A stretch of 58,433 nucleotides of DNA from Chloroflexota bacterium. GTDB taxonomy: Bacteria > Chloroflexota > Anaerolineae > CG2-30-64-16. The notes below the pieces were generated by a model. It was not told where the DNA came from, did no database searches, and saw only the letters and a program-made list of their open reading frames with translations. This document shows, one piece after another, positions 25,343 to 42,734 of this stretch. Within the stretch, counting starts at the first letter, position 1. Every line of letters begins with the position of its first letter. The translations under genes were made by a program, and so were the position numbers. The stretch covers positions 1-58,433 of the forward strand of contig JBBIKA010000003.1 in assembly GCA_037445695.1 (NCBI GenBank), written 5' to 3'.

Positions 25343-26470
25343 TCACCCGACGCAGGCGGCCGCCACCGCGCGCACCTGGTCATCGCTCAGCTCCGCGAAC
25401 ATCGGCAAGCTTAAGATCTCGGCCGCGGCCGCTTCAGTCTGAGACAGGTCGCCGGCGCACGGCAACCGGCCCGCGTAGGCCGGCTGCCGATGCACCGGCA
25501 CCGGATAGTGGATCAGCGTGCCGATCCCCCGCTCGTGCAAGCGCGCCTGGAAGGCCGCGCGGCGGCTGCTGCGCACCACGTACTGGTGATAGACGTGGCG
25601 CATGCCCGGCCGCTCGATCGGCAGGCGCAGGTCGCTCTCTTGTAACAGCTCCGTGTAGAGCCGCGCGGCGGCGCGGCGACGCTCGTTCTCGGCATCGAGG
25701 TGGCGCAGCTTCACCCGCAAGATCGCGGCCTGCAGCGTGTCCAGCCGGCTGTTCAGGCCGGGCAGGGCGCTCACGTAGCGCTCGCGCCAGCCGTACTCGC
25801 GCAACAGCCGCGCCCGTTCGGCCAGCTCGGCGTCGTTCGTGACCACCGCGCCGCCGTCGCCCAGCGCCCCCAGGTTCTTCGTCGGGTAGAAGCTGAACGC
25901 GGCCATGTCGCCGAAGGCGCCCGTCTTTCGGCCCGCGATGGCCGCGCCGTGCGCCTGCGCGCAATCTTCGATTACCCACAGATCGTAGCGCCGGGCGATC
26001 TCCAGGATGGCAACCATGTCGGCCGGGTGGCCGTAGAGGTGGACGGGGATGACCGCACCGCGCCGCGCGCCTTCGCCGCCGGCCGTCACGCGCTGCAGCG
26101 CGTCCTCCAGCCGCTGCGGATCCATCGTGAAGGTGGCCGGATCAATGTCCACCAGCACGGGGGTCGCGCCGGCCAGCTCGATCGCGGCGACCGTGGCCAC
26201 GGCCGTGTGGGAGACGGTGAAGACGTAGCTGCCCGGTCCGATGCCGCACGCGCGCAGCGCCAGGTGCAGCGCATCGGTGCCGCTGGCCACTCCGATCGCG
26301 TGGCCCACGGCCAGGTACGCGGCAAACTCGCGCTCGAACGCGGCGACCGGCTCGCCCAGGATGTAGCGGCCGGCCATCAGCACCTGGGCGATGGCCGCAT
26401 CAATCTCGGCCTTGTGCGCCAGATAGTTGGCGCGCGGATCGGTCTGTGGGATCATGGCGAACGTCCTCAT
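25343..26470 (-). CDS. DegT/DnrJ/EryC1/StrS-family PLP-dependent sugar aminotransferase (ArnB-like)
   Basis: ...[13 protein letters not shown]...[11 protein letters not shown]...[16 protein letters not shown]... ATG at 26470 overlaps the upstream SDR stop (ATGA). ATG 26455 is an alternative start. Confidence 0.9.
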
Positions 26471-27456
26471 ATGTAACGTGGCAGGTGCTCTCGATAGTAC
26501 GCCAGCGTGCGCGCCAGGCCCTCGCGCAGGGGCACCGTGGGCCGCCAGCCCAGCGTCTCCCGGATCAGACGGTCGTCGGCGTAATAGTCGCCGATGTCAA
26601 TCCGCTTGCGTTCGGCCGGAAAGCTACGCACGACAAAGCGGCCGCCGCCGTTGACCTCGACCAGCAGACGGGCCAGCGCCTCCAGGCTGATCACCTCGAG
26701 GCCGCCCAGGTTGAAGGCGCGGCCGTCGGCGCGCGCATCGGCCGCGGCCAACAGCAGCGCTGTCACCGCGTCGTCTACATAGGTAAAGTCGCGCAACTGG
26801 CCGCCCTCCCACACCTCGAACGGCCGGCCTTCGATCAGCAGCCGAATCCAGATGCCCAGAAAGGTCTGACGCGCATCCTTCACGCGCATCCGCGGGCCAT
26901 AGGTATTCGTCAGACGCAGGGCTGCCGCGCGCAGGCCGTAGACATTGTTGTAGAGGATGTGATACCACTCGCCGGCCATCTTGTTGATGCCGTTGACATC
27001 CACCGGCCGCAACAGATGCCCTTCGTCCACCGGCAGGCGCTCCGGCTTGCCGTAGATCTGCCGCGTGCTGGCGAAAACGATCTTGATGCCGGGATTGTGC
27101 TTGCGACACGCCTCCAAGATGGAGAGCTGCGCCCGACAATTGATCTCCAGATCGGTGTACGGATCCCGCATCGAATCGAGATGGCTGGTCTGGCCGGCCA
27201 GGTTGAAGAGATAGTCCTGCCCCTGCACCAGATGAGCCATGCTATGTTCGTCGCGCACATCCGAGATGTTGACCCGCACCCGCTCCTCGAGGCCGGCGAT
27301 GTTGAACAGATTGCCGCCGTACTGGGGGATCAGGCTATCCACCAGGGTCACGCTCGCGCCCAGCTCGACCAGGCGCCGGGCCAGGTTCGATCCGATGAAG
27401 CCGAGCCCGCCGGTGATCAGCACGCGGTGGCCCGCGAAGACTTGCGTCAGTTCCAT
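26467..27456 (-). CDS. Extended short-chain dehydrogenase/reductase (NAD-dependent sugar epimerase/dehydratase family)
   Basis: [14 protein letters not shown] Rossmann motif; ...FASTRQIYG...[12 protein letters not shown]...TNTYGPRM. By eye the usual YxxxK reads NGINK. Confidence 0.85.
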
Positions 27457-27511
27457 GGCCCCTATCATACCAAAAGCCCGCCGTAAAGCGCAATTGTGCT
27501 TTCGATGACCA

Positions 27512-27595
27512 GGGGCCATCCCCGAATGAGACACGAATACACGAATGGCCCGTTGCGTGATTCGTGCATTCGTGGTCGGATTCGGGGATGGCCCT
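27512..27595. repeat. Family-D nested hairpin (outer GGCCATCCCCGAAT/ATTCGGGGATGGCC; inner CACGAATACACGAAT/ATTCGTGCATTCGTG)
   Basis: Outer stem is a perfect 14 bp (27514-27527/27580-27593). The inner arms match the 15-bp hairpin at 57861-57903. The element lies between divergent gene starts. Confidence 0.85.
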
Positions 27596-27664
27596 CTAGC
27601 CCGCCACCCAAAGTCATATTTAGAATTGCTGGTTCTTTCGCTCCTTTCGCGTTTTTATATTACA

Positions 27665-28585
27665 ATGACGGCCATGCAAAACTCGTGGAAGACCTGGGCC
27701 CAGGCCGGCGTGCTGCTCGTCGCCGCCGGGTTCCTGGCCGCGCTCGTCATCGGCCAATGGACCACGCTGCGGACGTATGACTGGCAGATCGAGCCGGGCT
27801 GGGCGCTCCTGGCGCTGCTCGGCCTGGAGCTCACCTGGCTGTTCGAGCTGGACACCTGGCGCATGATCCTGGCCGGACTGGGTGGCCCGTTGCCCTATCG
27901 CACGGCCGCGCCGATCTGGTTCCTCAGCAACATTGTGCGCTACATCCCGGGCAACGTCTGGCAGTTCTTGGGCATGGCCGAGCTGGCGCACGACGAGGGC
28001 GTGCCGCGGCTCATCACCCTGACGAGCATCGTATTGCATCAGGTCATCTCGACCGCGGTGGGAGTGGTGCTGGCGGCGTGCTACTTCGCGCTCTTCGACG
28101 ACGGCGAGTGGCTGCGCTATCTGCGGCCGCTGCTGCTGATCGTACCGTTCGGCCTGCTCCTGCTTCAGCCGCGGCTCCTCGACATCGCGCTCAATTGGCT
28201 GTTGCGGCGGATGGGCCGTCCGGCCGTGCAGGTGGCCCTTTCGGGGCACCAGATCTGGCTGCTGATCGGCCGTTACTTCGTCGTCTGGACGCTGATGGGG
28301 CTCAGCTTCGCGGCGCTGGTGCGCGGCCTGACGCCGACCGGATGGCCCGCCGCGGGGTACCTGGTGGCAGCCTGGGCGGCCGCCTACGTCATCGGCTATC
28401 TGACCCTGCTCACGCCGGCCGGATTGGGAGTGCGCGAGGGTGCGTTGGCGCTCCTGCTCCTGCCGATCGCGCCGGCGGGGGTCGCCGCGGTGATCGCGAT
28501 CGCAGCTCGGCTATGGATGGTGGCCGGCGAGGTGCTGGGCGCAGGCGCAGCGTTGATCGTGCGAGGGCGAATGTGGCGCAGATAG
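27665..28585 (+). CDS. Flippase-like polytopic membrane protein (lysylphosphatidylglycerol-synthase transmembrane-domain family)
   Basis: Eight or so hydrophobic segments. ...FLSNIVRYIPGNVWQFLGM... and ...TPAGLGVREGAL... are motifs typical of this family. Confidence 0.75.
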   Translation: MTAMQNSWKTWAQAGVLLVAAGFLAALVIGQWTTLRTYDWQIEPGWALLALLGLELTWLFELDTWRMILAGLGGPLPYRTAAPIWFLSNIVRYIPGNVWQFLGMAELAHDEGVPRLITLTSIVLHQVISTAVGVVLAACYFALFDDGEWLRYLRPLLLIVPFGLLLLQPRLLDIALNWLLRRMGRPAVQVALSGHQIWLLIGRYFVVWTLMGLSFAALVRGLTPTGWPAAGYLVAAWAAAYVIGYLTLLTPAGLGVREGALALLLLPIAPAGVAAVIAIAARLWMVAGEVLGAGAALIVRGRMWRR

Positions 28586-31146
28586 TCGTCAGTCGTCAGT
28601 CATCCGTCATCAGCCGTCCGTCGTCCGTCGTCCTGGCGGCGATGCTGCTGTTCACCGTCTGGTTTTCCGCGTACAGCATCCGCCTGCACGACGCCCATCG
28701 CACGCACAAGGCCGACCTCGGCCAGATTGACCTGGCGATCTGGAACACCGCGCACGGCCGCTTCGTGCAGGAGATCAAGGACGATCAGGTGAGCACCCGC
28801 CTCACCGACCACGTCGAGCCGATCTTCCTGCTGGTTGCGCCGGTCTTCTGGCTCTGGGACGACGTGCGCGCGCTGTTGATCCTTCAGGCCGCGGCGCTGG
28901 CGGCCGGCGCGTGGCCGATCTATCTGTTGGCGCGGCGAAAGATCGGGGATGGGGGATCAGGGAGGGGGGCATGGCCGGCCGCGCTCTTTGCGCTGGCCTA
29001 TCTCCTCATGCCGATCCTCCAGGCCGCGGCCGTGGCCGAGTTCCACGCGCTGGCGCTGGCGCCGGCCCTGATCGCGTGGGCGCTGTGGGCGGTCGAGGCG
29101 CGGCGCTGGGGGCAGCTCATCGCGGCCGCGGCGCTGCTGATGGCCGTGCAGGAGGGGATGGCGCTCCTGGCGGCCGGCCTGGGTGCGTACGCGCTGGCGC
29201 GCGGATTGTGGTTTGCCCTCACCCCACCCCCCCACCCCCACCCCTCCCCCAAAATTGGGGGAGGGGCCGGGGGTGAGGGCGGGGGGGCGGGCATGATCTT
29301 GCCCGGCGCCGCGATGATGGTCCTCGGTCTGATCTGGTTCTACATTGCGACCTTCGTCATCATCCCGCACTACGCGGCGCAGGCGTATGGCTTGGCGCAA
29401 ACGCCCTATGTGGCGCGCTATGGCGAGCTGGGCGATAGCTTCGGCGACGTGCTCAAAGCCCTGCTCACGCGGCCGCTGGTCGTGCTGCGCCTGGCGGCCG
29501 AGCCCCCGCGCATCGGCTATCTGGTTGGCCTGTTCGCGGCGACCGGCTTCCTGGCGCTGCTCGGCCCGGAGATCGTGCTGCTGAGCGCGCCGCTGCTGCT
29601 CGCCAACCTGTTCAGCTCCTTTCCCATGCAATACTTCGGCGAGCTGCACTACTCCGCGGCGCTGGCGCCCTATCTGATCGTCGCCGCGTGGGTTGGTTTG
29701 CAGCGCTTCCGGGCGCAGGCGCAGCCGTTGACCGGCGGCCGGGCCGCGCTGATCCTGGGGCTAGCGCTCCTGGCGGCCGGCGCGCTGATCGGCCAAGTGA
29801 GCCGGGGGTACACGCCCATCGGCCGCGCGTATGCCCGCCTCGGCCCGGCATGGCCGACGGTCACCGCGCACGAGCGCCTGCTCGATCGCTTCGCGCGGCA
29901 GATTCCGGCCGGTGCGGCGCTCAGCACGACGGCCAGCCTCTATCCGCATTTTAGCCATCGGCCTCTGATCTACCAGTTCCCGTGGCTGGGCCAGGCCGAC
30001 TGGGTGTTGCTCGACGTGACGGCCGCCACCGATCGCCACCCGGCCGACATCCGGCGCGAGGCGTTGCGCCTGTTGGAGACGGGCTGGGGCGTGGTGGACG
30101 CGGCCGACGGCTATCTGCTGCTGGCGCGCGGCCGCGGGCAACCGGCCATTCCCGAGGCCTTCTACGACTTCGCGCGGGTGGCCGCCGGATGGTCGCCCGC
30201 CAACCTCGCCTGCGCCGAGAGGGGCGACTGCCGCGTCGCCTTCGCGGGGAAACTCGAGCTGCTCGGCTACGACCTGGCCGACGAGCCGAAATGGCGCCGC
30301 ACCGTGCTGCGCTTCTACTTCCGACCGCTGGAGTCGTTGCCCGCCGACACGCGCCTCCTCCTGCGGATCGTCTCGGCCGATGGCGAAACCGCGGCCGACA
30401 CGACCGTACAGGCCGCGCCCGCGCTGCTCTGGTACCCGCCCTCGGCGTGGCGGCCGGGGGAAACGGTCGTAGTAAACACTCTGCCGCTCTTCCTGCCGGC
30501 GGCCTGGGCGCCGGCCGTGGCGGTGGAAGCCGACGGCCAACGCCTGCCACCCCAGGTTGGCGGTCCCGCGGCCGTCGTGGCCGCCGGGGAAGCGATCTTG
30601 GGCGGATGGGAACGGCAAGATGGCCGGCTGGTGCCGATCGGCGAGCCGCGCGAGGCCTATCCCATCGCCGCGCGCTTCACGGCCAGAGGATGGAGCGTCC
30701 GCCTGACCCACGCGGCCATGCGCCAGGCCGCGGCGCCGGGCCGGCGCTACGCGCTGGCGCTGCGCTGGGCCTCGGACGAAGGCCCGGCCCCGACCGACTA
30801 CCGCGTCTTCGTCCATCTGCGCGATGCGGCCGGCCGCACCATTGCCAACGGCGACGCCACCCCCACTTGGTTCGCGCCCCGGCCGGTAAACCGCTGGCCG
30901 CGGCCCTTCGCCCTCTGGTCGGCCTACAGCATCCCCGTCCCGGCCGACGCGGCGCCGGGCCAATACACGCTGGTGATCGGCTGGTACGACCCGGAGACCG
31001 GCAAACGCCTGGCCGCCACCGGCGCCGACGGGAACGAGGTGGCGACCGAATTCGTCTTGGGGACGGTTGTGGTGGATCCGCTTGCCGGCCCGCGGCCCGA
31101 CCTCTGTTGTCTCATGGCGCCGGAATGCTGCGCGTCGCAGGAGTAG
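28573..31146 (+). CDS. DUF2079-like polytopic membrane protein with a large C-terminal extracytoplasmic domain (putative GT-C-type glycosyltransferase)
   Basis: ...LHDAHRTHKADLGQIDLAIWNT..GRF......TRLTDHVEPIFLL..P.... matches my memory of the DUF2079 N-terminus. There are many TM segments. The start is uncertain (GTG 28573 or ATG 28642). The part of ORF 28078.. upstream of 28573 overlaps the previous gene. Confidence 0.7.
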   Translation: MAQIVVSRQSSVISRPSSVVLAAMLLFTVWFSAYSIRLHDAHRTHKADLGQIDLAIWNTAHGRFVQEIKDDQVSTRLTDHVEPIFLLVAPVFWLWDDVRALLILQAAALAAGAWPIYLLARRKIGDGGSGRGAWPAALFALAYLLMPILQAAAVAEFHALALAPALIAWALWAVEARRWGQLIAAAALLMAVQEGMALLAAGLGAYALARGLWFALTPPPHPHPSPKIGGGAGGEGGGAGMILPGAAMMVLGLIWFYIATFVIIPHYAAQAYGLAQTPYVARYGELGDSFGDVLKALLTRPLVVLRLAAEPPRIGYLVGLFAATGFLALLGPEIVLLSAPLLLANLFSSFPMQYFGELHYSAALAPYLIVAAWVGLQRFRAQAQPLTGGRAALILGLALLAAGALIGQVSRGYTPIGRAYARLGPAWPTVTAHERLLDRFARQIPAGAALSTTASLYPHFSHRPLIYQFPWLGQADWVLLDVTAATDRHPADIRREALRLLETGWGVVDAADGYLLLARGRGQPAIPEAFYDFARVAAGWSPANLACAERGDCRVAFAGKLELLGYDLADEPKWRRTVLRFYFRPLESLPADTRLLLRIVSADGETAADTTVQAAPALLWYPPSAWRPGETVVVNTLPLFLPAAWAPAVAVEADGQRLPPQVGGPAAVVAAGEAILGGWERQDGRLVPIGEPREAYPIAARFTARGWSVRLTHAAMRQAAAPGRRYALALRWASDEGPAPTDYRVFVHLRDAAGRTIANGDATPTWFAPRPVNRWPRPFALWSAYSIPVPADAAPGQYTLVIGWYDPETGKRLAATGADGNEVATEFVLGTVVVDPLAGPRPDLCCLMAPECCASQE
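28585..28633 (+). repeat. Degenerate heptanucleotide tandem repeat, 7 units (GTCGTCA GTCGTCA GTCATCC GTCATCA GCCGTCC GTCGTCC GTCGTCC)
   Basis: Counted directly. It begins at the last base of the upstream TAG and lies between candidate starts GTG 28573 and ATG 28642 of the DUF2079-like gene. Confidence 0.85.
29221..29287. repeat. Family-C repeat element embedded in frame in the DUF2079-like CDS
   Basis: CCCCTCCCCC-AAAATT-GGGGGAGGGG (perfect 10-bp stem, 29241-29266) plus a CCGGGGGTGAGGGCGGGGGGG tail. It is translated as TPPPHPHPSPKIGGGAGGEGGGAG between two hydrophobic segments. Confidence 0.7.
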
Positions 31147-31178
31147 ATAGCAAAATCCGCAAAGCGGCAAAGCGACCG

Positions 31179-33251
31179 ATGATGTTTCACATCTCACGCT
31201 TCACGTTGCACGTTGCGCGCCTCATCCTCCTTCTCATCCTTCTGGCGGCGCTGGCCCTGCGCGTCCATCGGCTGGCGGCGCAAAGCCTGTGGTACGACGA
31301 GGCGGTAACCGCGCATGTGGCCGGCCAGGGGATCGCCGAGCTGACGCGCTGGACGGCCGACGACATCCAGCCGCCGCTCTACTACTACGTGGTGGCCGGC
31401 TGGACGGCCCTCGTAGGCCGGTCGGAGTGGGCGCTGCGCTTCCCGTCGGTCTTCTTCGGCGTGTTGACGACGGCGCTGATGTACGCCGTAGCGCGGCGGC
31501 TGTTCGGCACGCGGGCGGCGGCCGGCTTGGCCGCGCTGTTGACGGCGCTTGCGCCTCTTTACGTCTATTATGCGCAGGAAGCGCGCATGTACGCCCAGCT
31601 TACCTTCCTGGGCCTCCTGGCCGGCTATGCGCTGCTGCGGGCGATGGGGTGGCACGGCCGGCAAGACGAGCCCCCGGAGCCGGACCGACGGCCGGCCGCC
31701 GCCACGCAGCCGCCCGCGTGCGTGGCCCCATGCGCGGAGGGTCTCCGCGGCGTCCGCTGGTGGCTCGTCTTCGTCATCGCTGCGGTCGCCGCGCTCTACA
31801 CGCACTACTTCGCGGCCTTCCTGTTGCTGGCCTACGCGGCGTGCGTGCTGAGCGCGCTGATCGTCCAGACGGCGCGCGGCGGCCGGCCGGCATGGCGCCG
31901 CGGCGGCGCAGCCGCGGCGGCCGCCGCGGGGATCGTCCTGCTCTATTTGCCGTGGCTGCCGGCCATGCTCACCCGCTACCGGGTGGATCGCTCCTACTGG
32001 CAGGGCGCGCTGAAGCTCGGCGAGGCGCTGCGCCACGTCGCCATCAGCTTCACCGTGGCTGCGCCCGAGATGATGCTCGAAACGGAGGCCGTGCGCCTGT
32101 TGCCGTGGTTCGGCCTGGCGTTCGCCGCGGCCATGGTGGGCCTGTTCGCGAGGGCACATGGCCGGCCGATCCTATGGCTATTGCTGGCCTGTCTGCTGGT
32201 GCCGACGGTGGGCATCCTGGCGCTCGCCTCGCGCACGCCCAAGTTCAACGCCCGCTACCTGATGATCGCCTCGCCGGCGTATCTGTTGATCCTGGCGGGT
32301 GGGCTTGCGGCCTGGATCAGGGCCCGGATGCCGCCGCGCTCCGCCGACGGCCGCCGGCCGCGCGCGGCTATCGCCCTGGGCTATGCCCTGACGATCGCGG
32401 TCCTCGCCTTCCAGATTGTCACCGCCCGGACCGCGCTGCGCAACTGGTTCACCGATCGGGCCTTCGCCAAGGCGCAGTGGCGCGAGATGACCGCGACCGT
32501 GCGCGCGAAGATGGGCCCCGATGAAGCGGTCGTGCTGGTCTCGGGCCATGCGTGGCCCGCTTGGGATTACTACGCGGCCGACATCCCGGCCATTCGCCTG
32601 CCGGCGCTGGACATCCTGGATGTGGAAGCCGTGCTCGGCTTCGAGGATGGGCCGCGGCTGGGCGAAGCGCTGCGGGGCAAACGCGGGGTGTGGCTGGTGC
32701 GCTGGCAGGCCGAGACGGTGGATCCGGTGGGCTTCGCGCCCTATTTCCTGGATCGCATCGGCGTCGAGCAGCCCCAGCCGCGGCGCTTCTGGCACCTGGA
32801 CCTGCGCTACTGGCGGCTGGGCGACACCACCGCCATCCCGGCGGGGCCGACGCCGGCGCACGCCGACGGCGCCAACTTCGCGCACAAGCTGGCCCTGATC
32901 GGCTGGGATGACCCCGTGGACCGTCGGCTCACCGTCTACTGGCGGACGCTCAACCGGCTGACCGCCGATTACCAGGTCTCGCTCATCTTGAGCGATGCGG
33001 CCGGCCGCGAGGTGGGCCGCTGGGACGGCCGGCCCGCGGGCTACGACTATCCGACGACGCGCTGGCGGCCCGGCCAGATGTTGTTCGGCCGCTATCCGTT
33101 GCCCCTGCCGGCCGGGGCCGCCGGCGACTACTACGTCTCTCTGGCCGTCTACGACGCGTCCGATCCCGCGGGCCTGGACATCCGCGATGTGGCCGACAAC
33201 CCGGCCGGCAAGCGCGTGCGGCTGGGGCCGCTGCACCTGACCGGCAAGTGA
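31179..33251 (+). CDS. GT39/GT83-type (ArnT/PMT-like) polyprenyl-phosphate-sugar-dependent glycosyltransferase
   Basis: ...LWYDEAVTAHVA...DIQPPLYYYVVAGW...RFPSVFFGVLTTALMY... (the DE motif in the first loop is typical of GT-C). Polytopic. The C-terminal soluble module resembles that of the preceding gene. The 5' part of ORF 29982.. is an artefact. Confidence 0.85.
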   Translation: MMFHISRFTLHVARLILLLILLAALALRVHRLAAQSLWYDEAVTAHVAGQGIAELTRWTADDIQPPLYYYVVAGWTALVGRSEWALRFPSVFFGVLTTALMYAVARRLFGTRAAAGLAALLTALAPLYVYYAQEARMYAQLTFLGLLAGYALLRAMGWHGRQDEPPEPDRRPAAATQPPACVAPCAEGLRGVRWWLVFVIAAVAALYTHYFAAFLLLAYAACVLSALIVQTARGGRPAWRRGGAAAAAAAGIVLLYLPWLPAMLTRYRVDRSYWQGALKLGEALRHVAISFTVAAPEMMLETEAVRLLPWFGLAFAAAMVGLFARAHGRPILWLLLACLLVPTVGILALASRTPKFNARYLMIASPAYLLILAGGLAAWIRARMPPRSADGRRPRAAIALGYALTIAVLAFQIVTARTALRNWFTDRAFAKAQWREMTATVRAKMGPDEAVVLVSGHAWPAWDYYAADIPAIRLPALDILDVEAVLGFEDGPRLGEALRGKRGVWLVRWQAETVDPVGFAPYFLDRIGVEQPQPRRFWHLDLRYWRLGDTTAIPAGPTPAHADGANFAHKLALIGWDDPVDRRLTVYWRTLNRLTADYQVSLILSDAAGREVGRWDGRPAGYDYPTTRWRPGQMLFGRYPLPLPAGAAGDYYVSLAVYDASDPAGLDIRDVADNPAGKRVRLGPLHLTGK

Positions 33252-33301
33252 TGGCCCTTTTGACGGATGGCGCGGCCTCTGGTAGACTAACCCGAAAGTT
33301 T

Positions 33302-33334
33302 ACGTGCCAGGCACTTCCGAAGTGCCTGGCACGT
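33302..33334 (+). terminator. Family-E hairpin ACGTGCCAGGCACTT-CCG-AAGTGCCTGGCACGT (15-bp perfect stem) after the GT39 gene
   Basis: It lies 50 nt downstream of stop 33251. No clear U-tract follows. The arms are related to 6695-6715 and 36535-36567. Confidence 0.4.
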
Positions 33335-33371
33335 GACAACTGAAAGCATTATTTTGTTACGGAGGCTTCTC

Positions 33372-34688
33372 GTGCGGGTCAATGCCCGATCGTTGTTCTG
33401 GTTCCTTTGGTTGGGAATCGCCATCGCTCTGGCCGGCTGCGGCCTGGCGCCCATCCTCACCGACGTGCGGGTGGCGCCCGCCGTGATCTCGCCGAACGCC
33501 GATGGAACGGACGATGTCACGCACATCAACTATCGCGTGAACCGGCCGGCCAAAGTCTCGATCTATTTTGTGGACGCCCAGGGCGGACGCCACTACTTCC
33601 GCCAGGAACAACGCCGATCGCCCGGCAAATACGACGTCTACTGGGGCGGCGTGATCAACGATCCGCAGGTGCGGGTCGTCAACGGCCAGCCGATGCTGGT
33701 CGCCAGCCAGGTCTTGCCTGACGGCACCTATACCTGGGTCATCGAGGCGACGGACGATGCCGGCCGCCGGCAAGCCGTTCAAGGGCAGATCACCATCCAC
33801 GACGCGGACACGGCCCTGCCGGAGCTGCACAACTTCACGGTCATCCCGCAGGTCTTTCGGCCCAACCAGGACGGCCTGCGCGACGATCGGGTGGCGGTGT
33901 CGTATTACCTGACCAAGAAGGCCGAACGCGCCCAGGTCTACCTGGTGCCGGTCAACCCGCAACCAGGCCAGGAAGGCCTGAAATATCCCGTGGCCGAAAA
34001 GCCCTCGGCCTCGACGGCCGAGCCGGGCGCGGCGGGCTATCACGGCTACGACTACGACGGCGGCGTAGACTTGAACGCCGAGCCGCCGCCCAACGGCCTC
34101 TATATCGTCTACGGCGAGGCCGAGGATCGGGTGGGCAATCGGGTGGTGGTGAGCACGACGCTGACCATCGAAGAGGGCGGGAAGCCGCGCGCCGAGGTGG
34201 CCGGCGGCGAGATTGACTGGCAGGGGGAGATGAATCGCGTGGTCGGCGTGCCGCTGGGCCAAAGCCTCTGCTTTACCGCCACGATCGTCAACATCGGCCC
34301 GGTGCCGATCCGCACGGCCGGGCCGTGGCCGGGCCAGAAGTTCAAGTTCAGCCAGAATTACAACGCGCTGGCCGCGCAACAGGGCGAGAGCTCCTGGTAT
34401 CAGCAGGCGGGCGTCTGGCGCTTCGGCATCAACTTCGACACGACCGGCGTGGATTTTCCCTATCGCTGGGCCATCGGCCGCAAGGAAGACCTGGAAGAGC
34501 GCATCATTGACGGCCGGCCGCAATACTACCTGTTGCCAGGCAAGCGCGGCCAGGTGAGCGGCTGCATCGAATTCGACCAGAAGCCGCCGGTGGGCACCAA
34601 CTTCTGGTGGGGCGGGCTGATCCACGAGTTCGTCCAGGTGGCGAACAACGACATTGACCGGATCAGCGTCGTGGTGGGCGCGCCGTGA
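33372..34688 (+). CDS. Lipoprotein with two FlgD-Ig-like modules (ISPNADGTDD, FRPNQDGLRDD) and an uncharacterised C-terminal domain
   Basis: GTG at 33372 lies 6 nt after GGAGG. Signal plus lipobox LGIAIALAGC. The listed start 33333 lies inside the hairpin. Confidence 0.7.
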   Translation: MRVNARSLFWFLWLGIAIALAGCGLAPILTDVRVAPAVISPNADGTDDVTHINYRVNRPAKVSIYFVDAQGGRHYFRQEQRRSPGKYDVYWGGVINDPQVRVVNGQPMLVASQVLPDGTYTWVIEATDDAGRRQAVQGQITIHDADTALPELHNFTVIPQVFRPNQDGLRDDRVAVSYYLTKKAERAQVYLVPVNPQPGQEGLKYPVAEKPSASTAEPGAAGYHGYDYDGGVDLNAEPPPNGLYIVYGEAEDRVGNRVVVSTTLTIEEGGKPRAEVAGGEIDWQGEMNRVVGVPLGQSLCFTATIVNIGPVPIRTAGPWPGQKFKFSQNYNALAAQQGESSWYQQAGVWRFGINFDTTGVDFPYRWAIGRKEDLEERIIDGRPQYYLLPGKRGQVSGCIEFDQKPPVGTNFWWGGLIHEFVQVANNDIDRISVVVGAP

Positions 34689-34710
34689 TGGAGAGCAGGA
34701 GGGCCATCGA

Positions 34711-35742
34711 GTGAGTGGCGAGCCGACGCTGGCGGTGATCGTGGTCAGCTATAACGTGCGGGAGCTGTTGGCCGCGTGTCTGCGCGCGACGCTGGCGAGC
34801 CTGGCGCGCGCTGCGTTCGTGTTGCCCGGCGCGGGCCGGCCGGCGACCGCGGCCGTGATCGTCGTGGACAACGCCTCGAGCGACGGCAGCGCGGAGATGG
34901 TCGCGGCCGGGTTCCCGCAGGTGCAGCTCATCGCCAGCCCGCAGAACCTGGGCTTCGCCGCCGGCAACAACCTGGCGCTGCGGATGTTGGGGCTCGACGA
35001 TCGCGCAACGCGCCCCTCCATCCCGAATCCCCAATCCCTCATCTTTAATCCCTCCTTCGTCCTCCTCCTCAACCCCGACGCCGAGCCGCTCGACGACGCC
35101 ATCGGACAGATGGTGGGCTTTCTGGCCGCGCATCCCGAGGTGGGCGGGGTCGGCGCACAGCTTCGTTATCCCGACGGCCGTTTTCAGGACGGCGCCTTCC
35201 GCTTCCCCGATCTGTGGCAGCTCTGGTTCGATTTCTTTCCGCCCCGGCCGCGACGCCTGCTTGCCTCGCGGCTCAACGGCCGCTATCCGCGCGCCTGGTA
35301 CGACGCCGGCCGGCCGTTCCCCATAGACTTCGCGCTCGGCGCGGCGCTCATGGTGCGGCGGGAAGCCATCGCGGGGGTCGGGCTGCTCGACGAGGGGTAC
35401 TTCATGTACGCGGAAGAGGTGGACTGGTGCTGGCGCATTCGGCGCGCGGGATGGCCCTTCTACTGCGTACCGACCGCCCGGGTGATCCACCACGGCGGCG
35501 CGAGCGCGCGCCAGTTTCGGGCGCAATCGTTCCTGAACCTGTGGCGCAGCCGCAAGCGCCTGTACGACCGCTTCTATGCGCCCGGCCAACGACGCCTGGC
35601 CGGTCTCATCGTGCGGTTGGGGATGTGGGTCGAGGCGCGTCGGGCGGCCGCGGCCGCGGCCCGCGGCGAGATCGCGGCCGACGAGCTCGCCGCTCGCCTG
35701 GCCGCCTGCCGCGAGGTGCGGGCTCTTTTTGCACACCTGTAA
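34711..35742 (+). CDS. GT2-family glycosyltransferase (rhamnosyltransferase-like)
   Basis: [14 protein letters not shown]...[10 protein letters not shown]...NLGFAAGNN...LLLNPDAEP.... GTG at 34711 follows GAGCAGGAGGG. Confidence 0.85.
35020..35054 (+). repeat. Degenerate heptanucleotide tract inside the GT2 CDS (ATCCCGA ATCCCCA ATCCCTC ATCTTTA ATCCCTC)
   Basis: Five 7-nt units were counted directly. They encode the atypical insert ...[13 protein letters not shown]... between the NLGFAAGNN and LLNPDAEP motifs. Confidence 0.7.
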
Positions 35743-35782
35743 GGCGGGATTGATCTCGCCATGCTACGAGCCGGAGAAAGAG

Positions 35783-36529
35783 ATGTCTGTTCAACTTGCC
35801 GCCGCGATCTTGACCCGCAACGAGGCCCGGCACATTGCCGCGTGTCTGGCCACGCTGGGGTTTGCCGATCAGGTGGTGCTTTCCGATTCGTTCAGCGACG
35901 ATGGAACAGTAGAGATTGCGCGGGCGGCCGGCGCGACGATCTTCCAGCGACCGTTCGACAACTTCGCCGGCCAACGCAACGCTACGCTGGCGGCCGTTGA
36001 CGCGGAGTGGGTCTTCTTCGTGGATGCCGATGAGCGGATCACGCCGGAGCTGGCCGCCGAGGTGCGTCGGGTGATCGTCGAACGGCCCGAAGTGGGCTGG
36101 TGGGTGCCGCGCCATAACTTCATCGCCGGCCACCAGGTGCGCCACGGTGGCTTCTATCCCGACTATCAGCTTCGCCTGGTGCGCCGCGACCGTGCCCGTT
36201 ATGACCCCAACCGCCCCGTGCACGAGGTGGTCCTGCTGGACGGCCCGGCGGGTTATCTGCAAAACCCGATGATCCACTACAATTACGCCACCTGGGCGCA
36301 GTTCCACGCCAAGCAGCGCCGCTACGCGCGCATGGAAAGCCGCATCCTGCGCGAACGCGGGGTCCGGCCGTGGCCGCACAAATTCGTGCGCCAGCCGCTG
36401 CGCGAGTTCTGGCGCCGCTATGTGACGCTGGAAGGATACAAAGACGGCTGGATGGGACTGAAGCTGGCCGCGCTGCTGGGCTTTTACTACGGCTTCCTGC
36501 CGCACTGGTATCTCCTGCGCGGCGCGTAA
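35783..36529 (+). CDS. GT2-family glycosyltransferase (WaaE/KdtX-like)
   Basis: AAILTRNEARHIAACL...VVLSDSFSDDGTVEIA...FAGQRNATL...WVFFVDADERITPEL.... Confidence 0.85.
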   Translation: MSVQLAAAILTRNEARHIAACLATLGFADQVVLSDSFSDDGTVEIARAAGATIFQRPFDNFAGQRNATLAAVDAEWVFFVDADERITPELAAEVRRVIVERPEVGWWVPRHNFIAGHQVRHGGFYPDYQLRLVRRDRARYDPNRPVHEVVLLDGPAGYLQNPMIHYNYATWAQFHAKQRRYARMESRILRERGVRPWPHKFVRQPLREFWRRYVTLEGYKDGWMGLKLAALLGFYYGFLPHWYLLRGA

Positions 36530-36575: not shown

Positions 36576-37052
36576 CTAACGTTTCACCGTCACCCCGATC
36601 CGCTTGAGGATGCGAGGCAACCCTGCGGCAATGAGGCGATCCAGCGCCTCGGCCGTCGCCGCGTAGCCCTCCTCCGGGCCGCCGTAAGGATCGGGGATCT
36701 CCTCGTTGCGGCCGACCATCTCGCTCAGCAGGAAGACCTTGCGCAGGTGTTTCGGCTCCAGGTAAAACAGGGAGCGGCGATGCTGTTCCTCCATGACCAG
36801 GACGATGCTCGCCTTTTCCAGCAACTCGGCCGTCATCGCTTGCGACCGATGATCGGCCAGGGAGAGGCCCCGTTGGCTCAGGGCGCGGGCGGCGCCGTCG
36901 CTGGCCTGGTCGCCATCACGAGCCCACATCCCCGCCGACTGCACCTCAACCTGGTCGGCCAGCCCCAACTCGGCAATGCGGCGGCGCATCAGGGCGGCCG
37001 CCATCGGCGAGCGGCAGATGTTGGCGGTGCACACAAAGAGGATGAGTTTCAT
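36576..37052 (-). CDS. Low-molecular-weight protein tyrosine/arginine phosphatase
   Basis: MKLILFVCTANICRSPMA (CX5R(S) P-loop) ...DPYG. Confidence 0.9.
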   Translation of the reverse strand: MKLILFVCTANICRSPMAAALMRRRIAELGLADQVEVQSAGMWARDGDQASDGAARALSQRGLSLADHRSQAMTAELLEKASIVLVMEEQHRRSLFYLEPKHLRKVFLLSEMVGRNEEIPDPYGGPEEGYAATAEALDRLIAAGLPRILKRIGVTVKR

Positions 37053-37081
37053 GCCGCGCTGCACGCCTTCCGATCTCGACT

Positions 37082-41972: not shown

Positions 41973-42734
41973 ATGTCTGCAAACGAACCGCTCAACGCGA
42001 AAGTTATCGTCGTCATCCCCACCTACAACGAAGCCGACAACCTGCCGGCGTTGATCGCCGAGCTGCGAGCGCTCGAGCTGTCCAATCTCTCGGTGCTGAT
42101 CGTGGACGACAACTCGCCCGACGGCACCGGTCAGGTGGCCGAAACATTGGCTCAGCGCCTGCCGGGCTTCGTTCAGGTGCGTCACCGGCCGGGCAAGGAA
42201 GGGCTTGGCCGGGCCTACCTGGAGGGCTTCGACATCGCCCTGCGCGCCGGAGCCGATTACATCATCCAGATGGATGCCGACTTCTCGCACCCGCCCGCAG
42301 TCATCCCTCAGATGTTGGCCCTGATGCCCGAATACGACGTGGTGGTCGGCTCGCGCTATGTCGAGGGGGGCGCGCTCGACGAGCGCTGGGGCTGGTGGCG
42401 ACGCTTCTTGAGCTGGTGGGCCAACGAGGTCTGGTCGCGGCTGTTCCTCGGCCTGCGCGTGCGCGATATCACCGCCGGCTTCAAGTGCTGGCGCCGACAG
42501 ACGCTGCTCGGCATCGGCCTGGGGCGGATCGGCTCGAACGGCTACGCGTTCCAGGTCGAGATGGCTTATTTGACCGAGCGCCTGGGCTATCGCGTCAAGG
42601 AAATACCGATCTACTTCGAGGATCGGCGCATCGGCAAATCGAAGATGAGCATGCGGGTGAAGTTCCAGGGCGCATGGGATGTCATTCGGATTCGCTGGCG
42701 CTACCGCGGCAAGATCGCCCGGGCCCAGGGCTAG
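41973..42734 (+). CDS. ppm1: Polyprenol-monophosphate mannose (or related sugar) synthase, GT2 (Ppm1/DPM1-like)
   Basis: [18 protein letters not shown]...[13 protein letters not shown]...[15 protein letters not shown]...[12 protein letters not shown]...[10 protein letters not shown]...DITAGFKCW.... Confidence 0.9.

Follow-up and report, generated by a model that had tools for sequence, protein, structure and literature searches.

A conserved gene cluster of Chloroflexota points to an Arn-like, lipid-linked amino-sugar glycosylation system with a DUF2079 protein as its predicted GT-C transferase

The stretch of DNA analysed here (the window, 58,433 nucleotides) comprises positions 1 to 58,433 of contig JBBIKA010000003.1 of a Chloroflexota bacterium of the class Anaerolineae (assembly GCA_037445695.1), and the present study concerns a cluster of eight genes within it that includes a gene for a membrane protein of the DUF2079 family. 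With moderate confidence, we favour the reading that this cluster and its counterparts in related species specify a conserved Arn-like three-component envelope-glycosylation system, in which an amino sugar is linked to a lipid and the DUF2079 protein acts as the transferase. This reading draws on the predicted fold of the DUF2079 protein, on the order of the genes in relatives and on natural gene fusions. A search of ~8.4 million open papers and preprints found none that names DUF2079, yet the protein is the hub of a cluster that many Chloroflexota have in conserved form. The chemistry of the layered envelope of this phylum is almost unknown, and the system would provide a concrete pathway for one envelope modification, in which a lipid carrier bearing an amino sugar is served by an MprF-type flippase and then by a new family of glycosyltransferases (GT) of the GT-C fold.

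Gene identities were taken from a listing of open reading frames (ORFs) and a Pfam scan, in which each of the following genes gave a match above the curated cut-off at the place indicated:

25343-26470, minus strand: pyridoxal phosphate-dependent sugar aminotransferase, DegT_DnrJ_EryC1 (PF01041), 375 amino acids (Pfam E 1.9e-115)
26467-27468, minus strand: extended short-chain dehydrogenase/reductase (SDR), Epimerase, NAD-dependent epimerase/dehydratase family (PF01370; Pfam E 1e-46)
27469-27664, no strand: divergent intergenic spacer of 196 nucleotides between the minus-strand and plus-strand gene sets, read from the sequence
27665-28585, plus strand: flippase-like membrane protein of MprF/PplT type, LPG_synthase_TM (PF03706), 306 amino acids (Pfam 49.3 bits, cut-off 33.4)
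28573-31146, plus strand: DUF2079 protein (PF09852; Pfam E 1.3e-63)
31179-33251, plus strand: PMT_2/PMT GT-C enzyme, GT39/GT83-like (Pfam PMT_2 54 bits, cut-off 26.1; PMT 31.9 bits)
33333-34688, plus strand: Ig-like lipoprotein with about four Ig-like beta-sandwich domains (Pfam CHU_C and Big_13; lipobox; AlphaFold2 model)
34711-35742, plus strand: GT2a, a soluble or peripheral GT2 enzyme, WbbL/GlfT1/MftF-like (Pfam PF00535 and PF13641; ORF open from TTG 34654)
35783-36529, plus strand: GT2b, a small GT2 enzyme with a SunS/GmaR-like N-terminal domain (Pfam PF00535)

The two divergent sets and all eight genes therefore lie where an initial annotation, made from the sequence, had placed them, and the coupling of the SDR and DegT genes that it had reported is read in the sequence as an ATGA stop/start overlap. 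The plus-strand genes are spaced by -13 to 81 nucleotides.

To model the DUF2079 protein, AlphaFold2 was given an alignment of 43 homologues (46-86% identity), which yielded a structure with a mean predicted local distance difference test (pLDDT) value of 90.2 and a predicted template-modelling (pTM) score of 0.86. When this model was compared with the PDB by Foldseek, the first-ranked structure was ArnT of Cupriavidus metallidurans (5f15; E 2.9e-6, probability 1.0). EmbC (7bve) was also matched (E 1.4e-3) and was the sole other membrane enzyme among the listed best matches (E up to ~0.004), which included no transporter. Whether the DUF2079 protein models as a GT-C enzyme or as a transporter, a check proposed in the initial annotation, was thus decided in favour of GT-C. 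The model starts with a helix (residues 2-17), continues with a loop that contains a helix (26-37) and a hairpin (43-52), and has membrane helices up to about residue 390; the membrane domain covers about amino acids 1-520, and 10 hydrophobic segments were found by a hydropathy scan. GT-C enzymes carry catalytic acidic residues in the loop between their first two membrane helices. In the DUF2079 protein, residues D25, D30, D56, H57 and E59, which are invariant in the 43 homologues, are placed by the model between the first two membrane helices, in the predicted first outer loop. Taken together, these data define the DUF2079 protein as a predicted GT-C-fold glycosyltransferase with ArnT as its best match among solved structures. 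The C-terminal third of the protein forms two beta-sandwiches that resemble RbmA, arrestin and the carbohydrate-binding domain of Wzt (Foldseek).

An imperfect heptanucleotide tract is present at 28585-28633, between the GTG codon at 28573 and the alternative start ATG 28642 of the DUF2079 gene. The consensus of the aligned orthologues has an N-terminal extension of ~25 residues ahead of the first membrane helix, which favours the GTG 28573 start, and the tract then lies inside the coding sequence. The gene also encodes a Pro/His/Gly-rich insert (nucleotides 29221-29287) that is the sole segment of the model with a pLDDT below 50 (residues 205-213); among orthologues this loop is hypervariable in length and sequence.

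Homologues of the DUF2079 protein come from Anaerolineae, Caldilineae, Ardenticatenia and Ca. Amarolinea. In an even sampling of the phylum, a close orthologue was found in 25 of 201 genomes at E 1e-30, belonging to few families, and a set of 80 species loci was therefore used for synteny. The ORFs at these loci were clustered; the denominators given below are the loci with enough flanking DNA, and the counts are descriptive rather than statistical, as the species are related. Synteny in relatives had been set beforehand as the test on which the idea of a functional cluster could fail, and the gene order proved to be conserved in modules across the 80 loci:

flippase-like gene, directly upstream of DUF2079 on the same strand: 39 of 74 loci
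PMT_2 gene, downstream of DUF2079: 33 of 55 loci
SDR orthologue, within 3-4 kb of DUF2079: 14 of 53 loci
DegT orthologue, within 3-4 kb of DUF2079: 14 of 53 loci
Ig-like lipoprotein gene, downstream of DUF2079: 18 of 49 loci
GT2a, downstream of DUF2079: 17 of 46 loci
GT2b, downstream of DUF2079: 16 of 44 loci
ArnC-like GT2 of an upstream pair, upstream of DUF2079: 21 of 49 loci (17 of 26 among orthologues of at least 43% identity)
GT4 gene, upstream of DUF2079 and directly upstream of the flippase-like gene: 22 of 49 loci

The fullest order observed is STAND nucleoside triphosphatase (NTPase), AAA, a second DegT (DegT'), GT2, GT4, flippase-like gene, DUF2079, (SDR, DegT), PMT_2, Ig lipoprotein, GT2a and GT2b, followed by a convergent phosphatase gene and a hibernation factor gene. 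The flippase-like gene is present at each of the 11 fully flanked loci with an SDR orthologue, and the DegT orthologues near DUF2079 are 55-92% identical to that of the window.

The flippase-like gene is single-copy in this genome, and the match of its product to PF03706 covers positions 5-293 of the 302 positions of the model. In 13 of the best 120 homologue clusters, an N-terminal PF03706 domain and a C-terminal DUF2079 domain are joined in one protein, the halves of which are orthologous to the two genes of the window (44-65% identity) and stand in the same order. The fused gene of Ca. Amarolinea aalborgensis is an uninterrupted ORF that is directly followed by SDR and DegT genes; no PMT_2 gene lies within 10 kb of it. 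As these domains occur fused, the flippase-like protein and the DUF2079 protein would work together, and the fusions are strong evidence for such joint action. The natural fusion proteins are suited to structural work. The flippase domain of MprF scrambles lipids promiscuously, very large ones included (PMC11980842), which makes either a polyprenyl-linked sugar or a glycoglycerolipid plausible as the lipid of a PF03706 protein. We also considered that DUF2079 and the MprF-type scramblase domain may constitute a distinct class, unstudied so far, of coupled "flip and transfer" machines, with the scramblase passing a lipid-linked amino sugar directly to the GT-C active site, an idea that we hold to be distinctly unlikely. 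If true, such a machine in monoderm Chloroflexota would place a cationic sugar on a membrane lipid or a lipid-anchored glycan and would be a functional counterpart of the ArnT/MprF charge modification in bacteria without lipid A.

The initial annotation had assigned the loading of polyprenyl phosphate to a GT2 of the cluster, and this assignment did not hold, as neither GT2a nor GT2b is ArnC-like. A hydropathy scan found no C-terminal membrane helices in GT2a and no hydrophobic segments in GT2b, and both enzymes match GT2 of other types: GT2a gave weak matches to the NCBIfam models of rhamnosyltransferase (WbbL-type), GlfT1 and MftF, and GT2b matched 7msk, GmaR and SunS in the PDB (E 1e-8 to 1e-6). 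Both were for these reasons rejected as ArnC-type polyprenyl-phosphate transferases. The orthologue of the ArnC-like GT2 found upstream of DUF2079 in relatives is encoded in this genome on contig C10 and is 69-76% identical to the operon GT2 of the relatives (76% to that of locus L042). The C10 GT2 matched ArnC structures over its full length (E 5e-26), followed by DPMS and GtrB; its best NCBIfam models were PgfS and ArnC (ArnC: 90.5 bits, cut-off 529), and it has hydrophobic C-terminal segments, read as membrane helices in the hydropathy scan. A Ppm1-like GT2 of the window (41973-42734) was also tried as the ArnC analogue and was discarded because it is only ~30% identical to the operon GT2 of the relatives, far below the C10 copy.

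The block at ~16.4-25.5 kb of C10 (L116:6383-15460) carries, on one strand, genes for a STAND NTPase with beta-propeller repeats, an AAA protein, DegT', the ArnC-like GT2, a GT4 enzyme and a GFO/IDH/MocA oxidoreductase. This block is the other half of the system, detached from the cluster in this genome. GT2, GT4, DegT' and the remaining pieces are all contiguous in a 61%-identical relative, which indicates that the split in this genome is a rearrangement, and the split point lies within contigs rather than at an assembly edge. The C10 GT4 gave weak matches to GlcNAc-phosphatidylglycerol synthase (52 bits, cut-off 480) and to MshA/BshA types. The STAND-AAA pair upstream of the glycosylation genes is conserved in 14-15 species, for no evident reason.

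In an alignment made with HMMER to GalE-type structures (4zrm), the SDR of the cluster has Asn at the Tyr position of the YxxxK motif (NGINK) and TRQ where dehydratases and decarboxylases have T-D/S-E. Both NG[IV]NK and TRQ are kept in 20 SDR orthologues from 20 species, all of which adjoin DUF2079, which argues for a real SDR subfamily and not a decayed gene; judged by these residues, the SDR is a distinct subfamily. At some other loci, an SDR with the canonical Tyr stands directly after DUF2079 in place of the Asn-type SDR. The best NCBIfam models of the DegT protein were PseC, LegC and ArnB, all with scores far below the equivalog cut-offs (ArnB: 202 bits, cut-off 631), so that neither the sugar nor the aminated position can be assigned. 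Of the reaction sequence first proposed for this pair, oxidation or dehydration of a nucleotide sugar followed by transamination, the DegT-family assignment of the aminotransferase was upheld, and the oxidation step is not secure, given the Tyr to Asn exchange and the missing Asp/Glu pair.

From these results, the following pathway may be proposed for Chloroflexota of the Anaerolineae/Caldilineae type. The SDR/DegT pair would turn a nucleotide sugar into an amino sugar, possibly with the involvement of the second aminotransferase and the GFO/IDH/MocA oxidoreductase of C10. The ArnC-like GT2, encoded on C10 here and in the operon in relatives, would attach this sugar to polyprenyl phosphate on the inner side of the membrane, and the MprF/PplT-type flippase-like protein would bring the lipid-linked sugar to the outer face. 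There, the DUF2079 GT-C enzyme would move the sugar to an extracytoplasmic acceptor, which its two C-terminal modules probably hold. PMT_2, the Ig lipoprotein, GT2a and GT2b would be a second conserved sub-block that most likely takes part in building the same surface glycan or in decorating it further. The analysis itself yields the gene identities, the predicted GT-C fold, the modular synteny, the flippase-DUF2079 fusions and the lack of lipid A genes, and from these we infer which sugar and donor are used, which way the lipid is flipped and what accepts the sugar. That DUF2079 would draw on a polyprenyl-(di)phosphate-linked sugar is suggested solely by the fold and by the ArnC-like GT2 in the operons of relatives.

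Several observations weigh against this pathway. The SDR lacks the catalytic Tyr and the acid/base pair of dehydratases, and a keto sugar may not be its product. The ArnC-like GT2 is not linked to the cluster in this genome, being on another contig, and at the Ca. Amarolinea fusion locus no GT2 gene was found within 10 kb. As to the flippase, neither the flippase-like sequence nor a 27-sequence profile of it matched any PDB chain, MprF included, and those PF03706 relatives that have been studied act on glycerolipids instead of polyprenyl-linked sugars (PMC12713373; bioRxiv 10.1101/2022.03.11.483950). Among 41 fully flanked DUF2079 loci, 9 are without any partner gene, most of them distant loci. 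The Foldseek TM-score between the DUF2079 model and ArnT is modest (0.44, target-normalised), and an hhalign comparison of the membrane domains of DUF2079 and PMT_2 was negative (1.2% probability). Since, in addition, the DUF2079 sequence gave no match to PDB sequences in phmmer at E up to 10 and no NCBIfam match, its assignment to GT-C rests on the predicted fold and the loop residues.

The missing sequence matches and the negative hhalign result would also fit a DUF2079 protein that is not a glycosyltransferase, such as a transporter or some other kind of polymerase; likewise, as this genome is rich in GT-C paralogues, some adjacency by chance is to be expected, and DUF2079 could simply lie amid many glycosylation genes. 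We consider this explanation very improbable. It is at odds with ArnT as the top structural match, with the lack of a transporter among those best matches, with the invariant acidic residues of the first loop, and with a gene order that is kept across dozens of species and reinforced by natural fusions; the synteny counts, the Foldseek result and the shared gene order have already largely refuted it.

A more serious challenge to the proposed role of the flippase-like protein comes from the GT4 gene, and it is the main one: the flippase would deliver the acceptor and not the donor. The GT4 enzyme would glycosylate a membrane glycerolipid inside the cell, the PF03706 protein would flip the glycolipid, and DUF2079 and PMT_2 would extend or decorate this lipid anchor outside by means of polyprenyl-phosphate sugars, in parallel with GpgS/PimA and with the role proposed for GpgF. 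The position of GT4 directly upstream of the flippase-like gene at 22 of 49 loci is consistent with this, as are its weak matches to GlcNAc-phosphatidylglycerol synthase and to MshA/BshA types, the pairing of a GT4 with a UPF0104/PF03706 protein in gpgSDF (PMC12713373) and the fusion of PplT domains to GT-B enzymes in Chloroflexi (bioRxiv 10.1101/2022.03.11.483950). Furthermore, ArnT, the closest fold to DUF2079, has a lipid acceptor, and an MptA_B-family GT-C is encoded in the cluster of one relative. However, the score of GT4 against the GlcNAc-phosphatidylglycerol synthase model is far under the cut-off (52 against 480 bits), Ca. Amarolinea keeps the flippase-DUF2079 fusion with SDR and DegT and has no GT4 nearby, and the likeness of the C-terminal modules to carbohydrate-binding domains speaks for a glycan as the acceptor and not for a lipid. 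On balance we judge this alternative to be rather unlikely; it is compatible with the amino-sugar pathway proposed above, in that the donor would still need a flippase.

Comparison with known systems supports an analogy of function. The Arn (Pmr) pathway of Gram-negative bacteria, in which ArnA, ArnB, ArnC, ArnD, ArnE/F and ArnT add 4-amino-4-deoxy-L-arabinose (L-Ara4N) to lipid A, follows the same logic of SDR oxidation, DegT transamination, loading of polyprenyl phosphate by a GT2, flipping and transfer by a GT-C enzyme outside. Among solved structures, the DUF2079 model is matched best by ArnT and the C10 GT2 by ArnC. However, neither a protein of the cluster nor the C10 GT2 reaches an Arn equivalog cut-off: the SDR scores 39 bits against the ArnA model (cut-off 777) and its catalytic Tyr is replaced by Asn. 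The Pfam and NCBIfam matches of the cluster include neither the formyltransferase domain of ArnA nor a deacetylase of ArnD type, and the flippase candidate is of MprF/PplT type instead of a small multidrug resistance (SMR) pair. Searches for LpxC and LpxB gave no match in this 99.2%-complete genome, which excludes lipid A as the acceptor, and the ArnC-like GT2 is unlinked in this genome. The system would thus work like Arn and the three-component systems but is not a member of Arn, as it fails every Arn membership test run. From the Arn-like logic of the initial annotation, a lipid-linked amino-sugar system with more than one GT-C enzyme is retained, while a GT2 of the island as the loader and a secure SDR oxidation are not. 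Chloroflexota have been described as lacking lipopolysaccharide synthesis, and their layered envelopes are proposed to be polysaccharide or protein (PMC13319060).

As in the three-component systems (GtrA/GtrB/Gtr*, CsbB/GtcA/YfhO and the GT136 pentofuranose systems; PMC11127046), a synthase of polyprenyl-phosphate sugar would act here with a flippase and a GT-C enzyme, and the GT-C enzyme bears a C-terminal extracytoplasmic sugar-binding-like domain, as do GT136 ORF12, EmbC and AftD. It differs from them in that the GT-C enzyme belongs to the uncharacterised DUF2079 family, that the putative flippase is of the PF03706 family instead of GtrA, SMR, MATE or Wzx and in some species forms one protein with the GT-C, and that the conserved cluster adds an amino-sugar branch, a GT4 and a second GT-C. 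In GpgSDF of Pseudomonas aeruginosa and HexSDF of Clostridioides difficile (PMC12713373), a PF03706/UPF0104 protein is encoded together with a glycosyltransferase that makes an amino-sugar membrane lipid; similarly, GT4 adjoins the flippase-like gene in relatives and is on C10 in this genome. In contrast to Gpg/Hex, no deacetylase family occurs among the recurrent neighbours of the DUF2079 loci, and the GT-C, sometimes fused, that comes after the flippase-like gene would add a further transfer step outside, without a counterpart in Gpg/Hex. A further likeness, by domain families only, is to mycobacteria, in that a GT4, a putative polyprenyl-phosphate GT2 and several GT-C enzymes are present and one relative has an MptA_B gene. 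Mycobacterial lipomannan/lipoarabinomannan and arabinogalactan are made by the GT4 enzymes PimA/PimB, the GT2 Ppm1 and the GT-C enzymes PimE/MptA/MptB/Emb/Aft, some of which have C-terminal sugar-binding domains.

The second GT-C enzyme of the cluster, PMT_2, has an acidic DE motif in loop 1: W38-Y39-D40-E41, after the first membrane helix, is invariant in 11 orthologues. Its score against the NCBIfam ArnT model is 15.9 bits (cut-off 567), and phmmer against PDB sequences gave a chance match only. This genome has ~30 PMT_2 and 3 DUF2079 paralogues, so that two adjacent GT-C genes are not unusual here; the earlier proposal of two large extracytoplasmic transferase candidates stands as regards the presence of more than one GT-C enzyme in the cluster, while the pairing itself is not remarkable. 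In a relative of 45% identity, an MptA_B-family GT-C (L003:17881-19374) comes after PMT_2, which gives three GT-C families in a row. Downstream of PMT_2, the Ig-like lipoprotein has a lipobox Cys36 that is invariant in 19 orthologues and a short Ser/Thr/Pro-rich linker. Its AlphaFold2 model (pLDDT 79) is a string of ~four Ig-like sandwiches, with Foldseek matches to the MG domains of alpha-2-macroglobulin, the surface glycan-binding protein SGBP-B, RbmA and an S-layer protein; going by this model, its role could be that of a scaffold, a binding partner or a substrate.

A substrate role would be in line with protein O-glycosylation, in which PMT_2, and perhaps DUF2079, would modify secreted proteins or lipoproteins, the Ig lipoprotein among them, as in actinobacterial O-mannosylation. 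PMT_2 has both PMT_2 and PMT matches in Pfam together with the conserved DE motif, the Ig lipoprotein gene with its Ser/Thr/Pro-rich linker is conserved immediately downstream, and the N-terminal domain of GT2b resembles the peptide and protein glycosyltransferases SunS and GmaR. Nevertheless, this likeness of GT2b is limited to the generic nucleotide-sugar-binding part, PMT_2 is without the MIR domain of true PMTs and has a low PMT score (31.9 bits), the ~30 PMT_2 paralogues fit glycan diversification better than one protein-glycosylation pathway, and the C-terminal modules resemble glycan-binding folds. Protein O-glycosylation is thus an improbable function of the cluster in our view.

The C-terminal similarity between the DUF2079 and PMT_2 proteins, reported in the initial annotation, was recovered by BLASTP (E 1e-6 and 2e-6) and defines a module with the following copies, all on the plus strand:

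30166-30501, plus strand: first copy in the DUF2079 protein, amino acids 532-643
30796-31062, plus strand: second copy in the DUF2079 protein, amino acids 742-830
32823-33227, plus strand: copy in the PMT_2 protein, amino acids 549-683

The module is a beta-sandwich of ~110 residues with the consensus ...LxGYD...TLYWxA...DYxVFVHLxD..G...AQxD..P..G..PT..W..GE...D......P...PPGxYRLxxGLYD..TGxRL. An iterated hidden Markov model search of this genome found 30 copies on 22 ORFs, always C-terminal; 14 of these ORFs carry PMT_2, 2 carry DUF2079 and 6 are others, and they are on contigs C2, C28, C29, C39, C68, C106, C323 and others. A profile built from 23 copies found matches in 32,833 representative protein clusters at E<=0.001 and in 23,672 at 1e-10, the top-scoring proteins having three or four tandem copies. 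The sampled module proteins carry PMT_2, PTPS_related or TMEM260-like GT-C domains, which with DUF2079 makes at least four families. The similarity is therefore real but is not special to the two genes of the cluster: the 22 ORFs and more than 32,000 clusters rule out the module as a specific tie between DUF2079 and PMT_2, and the distribution of these sequences identifies it as a general accessory domain of GT-C enzymes. No Pfam domain covers it; a Pfam scan of the modules alone at E<=10 gave a sub-threshold Gmad2 Ig-like match only. GT-C enzymes with acceptor-binding carbohydrate-binding modules are known, and by analogy with those of GT136, EmbC and AftD (PMC11127046) the module is plausibly acceptor-binding. 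A widespread C-terminal domain without a Pfam model may thus be an acceptor-binding module of GT-C enzymes.

Clusters with several GT-C genes are common in this genome. At ~1.6-10.7 kb of C39, four consecutive ORFs on the same strand bear the module, one of them with DUF2079, one with a sub-threshold PMT_2 match and two with neither; a GT2a paralogue is located just past them, at 12.0-12.8 kb.

On the downstream side, the cluster is followed by a convergent neighbour:

36576-37064, minus strand: low-molecular-weight phosphotyrosine phosphatase (Pfam LMWPc E 5e-30)

This gene comes after GT2b at 14 loci; the phosphatase may be a regulator, and its place in the system is uncertain. With the ribosome hibernation factor HPF, OsmC and PCMT, it makes up a downstream flank that is unrelated to the cluster, as is the upstream flank, which has an aldolase and an enolase-family gene of sugar-acid catabolism. 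The G+C content of the cluster matches that of the rest of the window, so that this is a gene cluster and not a compositional island. A scan for promoters and terminators, including the divergent spacer, gave no match above chance. Inside this spacer, which separates the SDR gene from the flippase-like gene, lies an inverted repeat (CATCCCCGAAT...ATTCGGGGATG; 27519-27592). The longest ORF of the flippase-like gene is open from 27545, and the repeat overlaps its unused 5' end in part.

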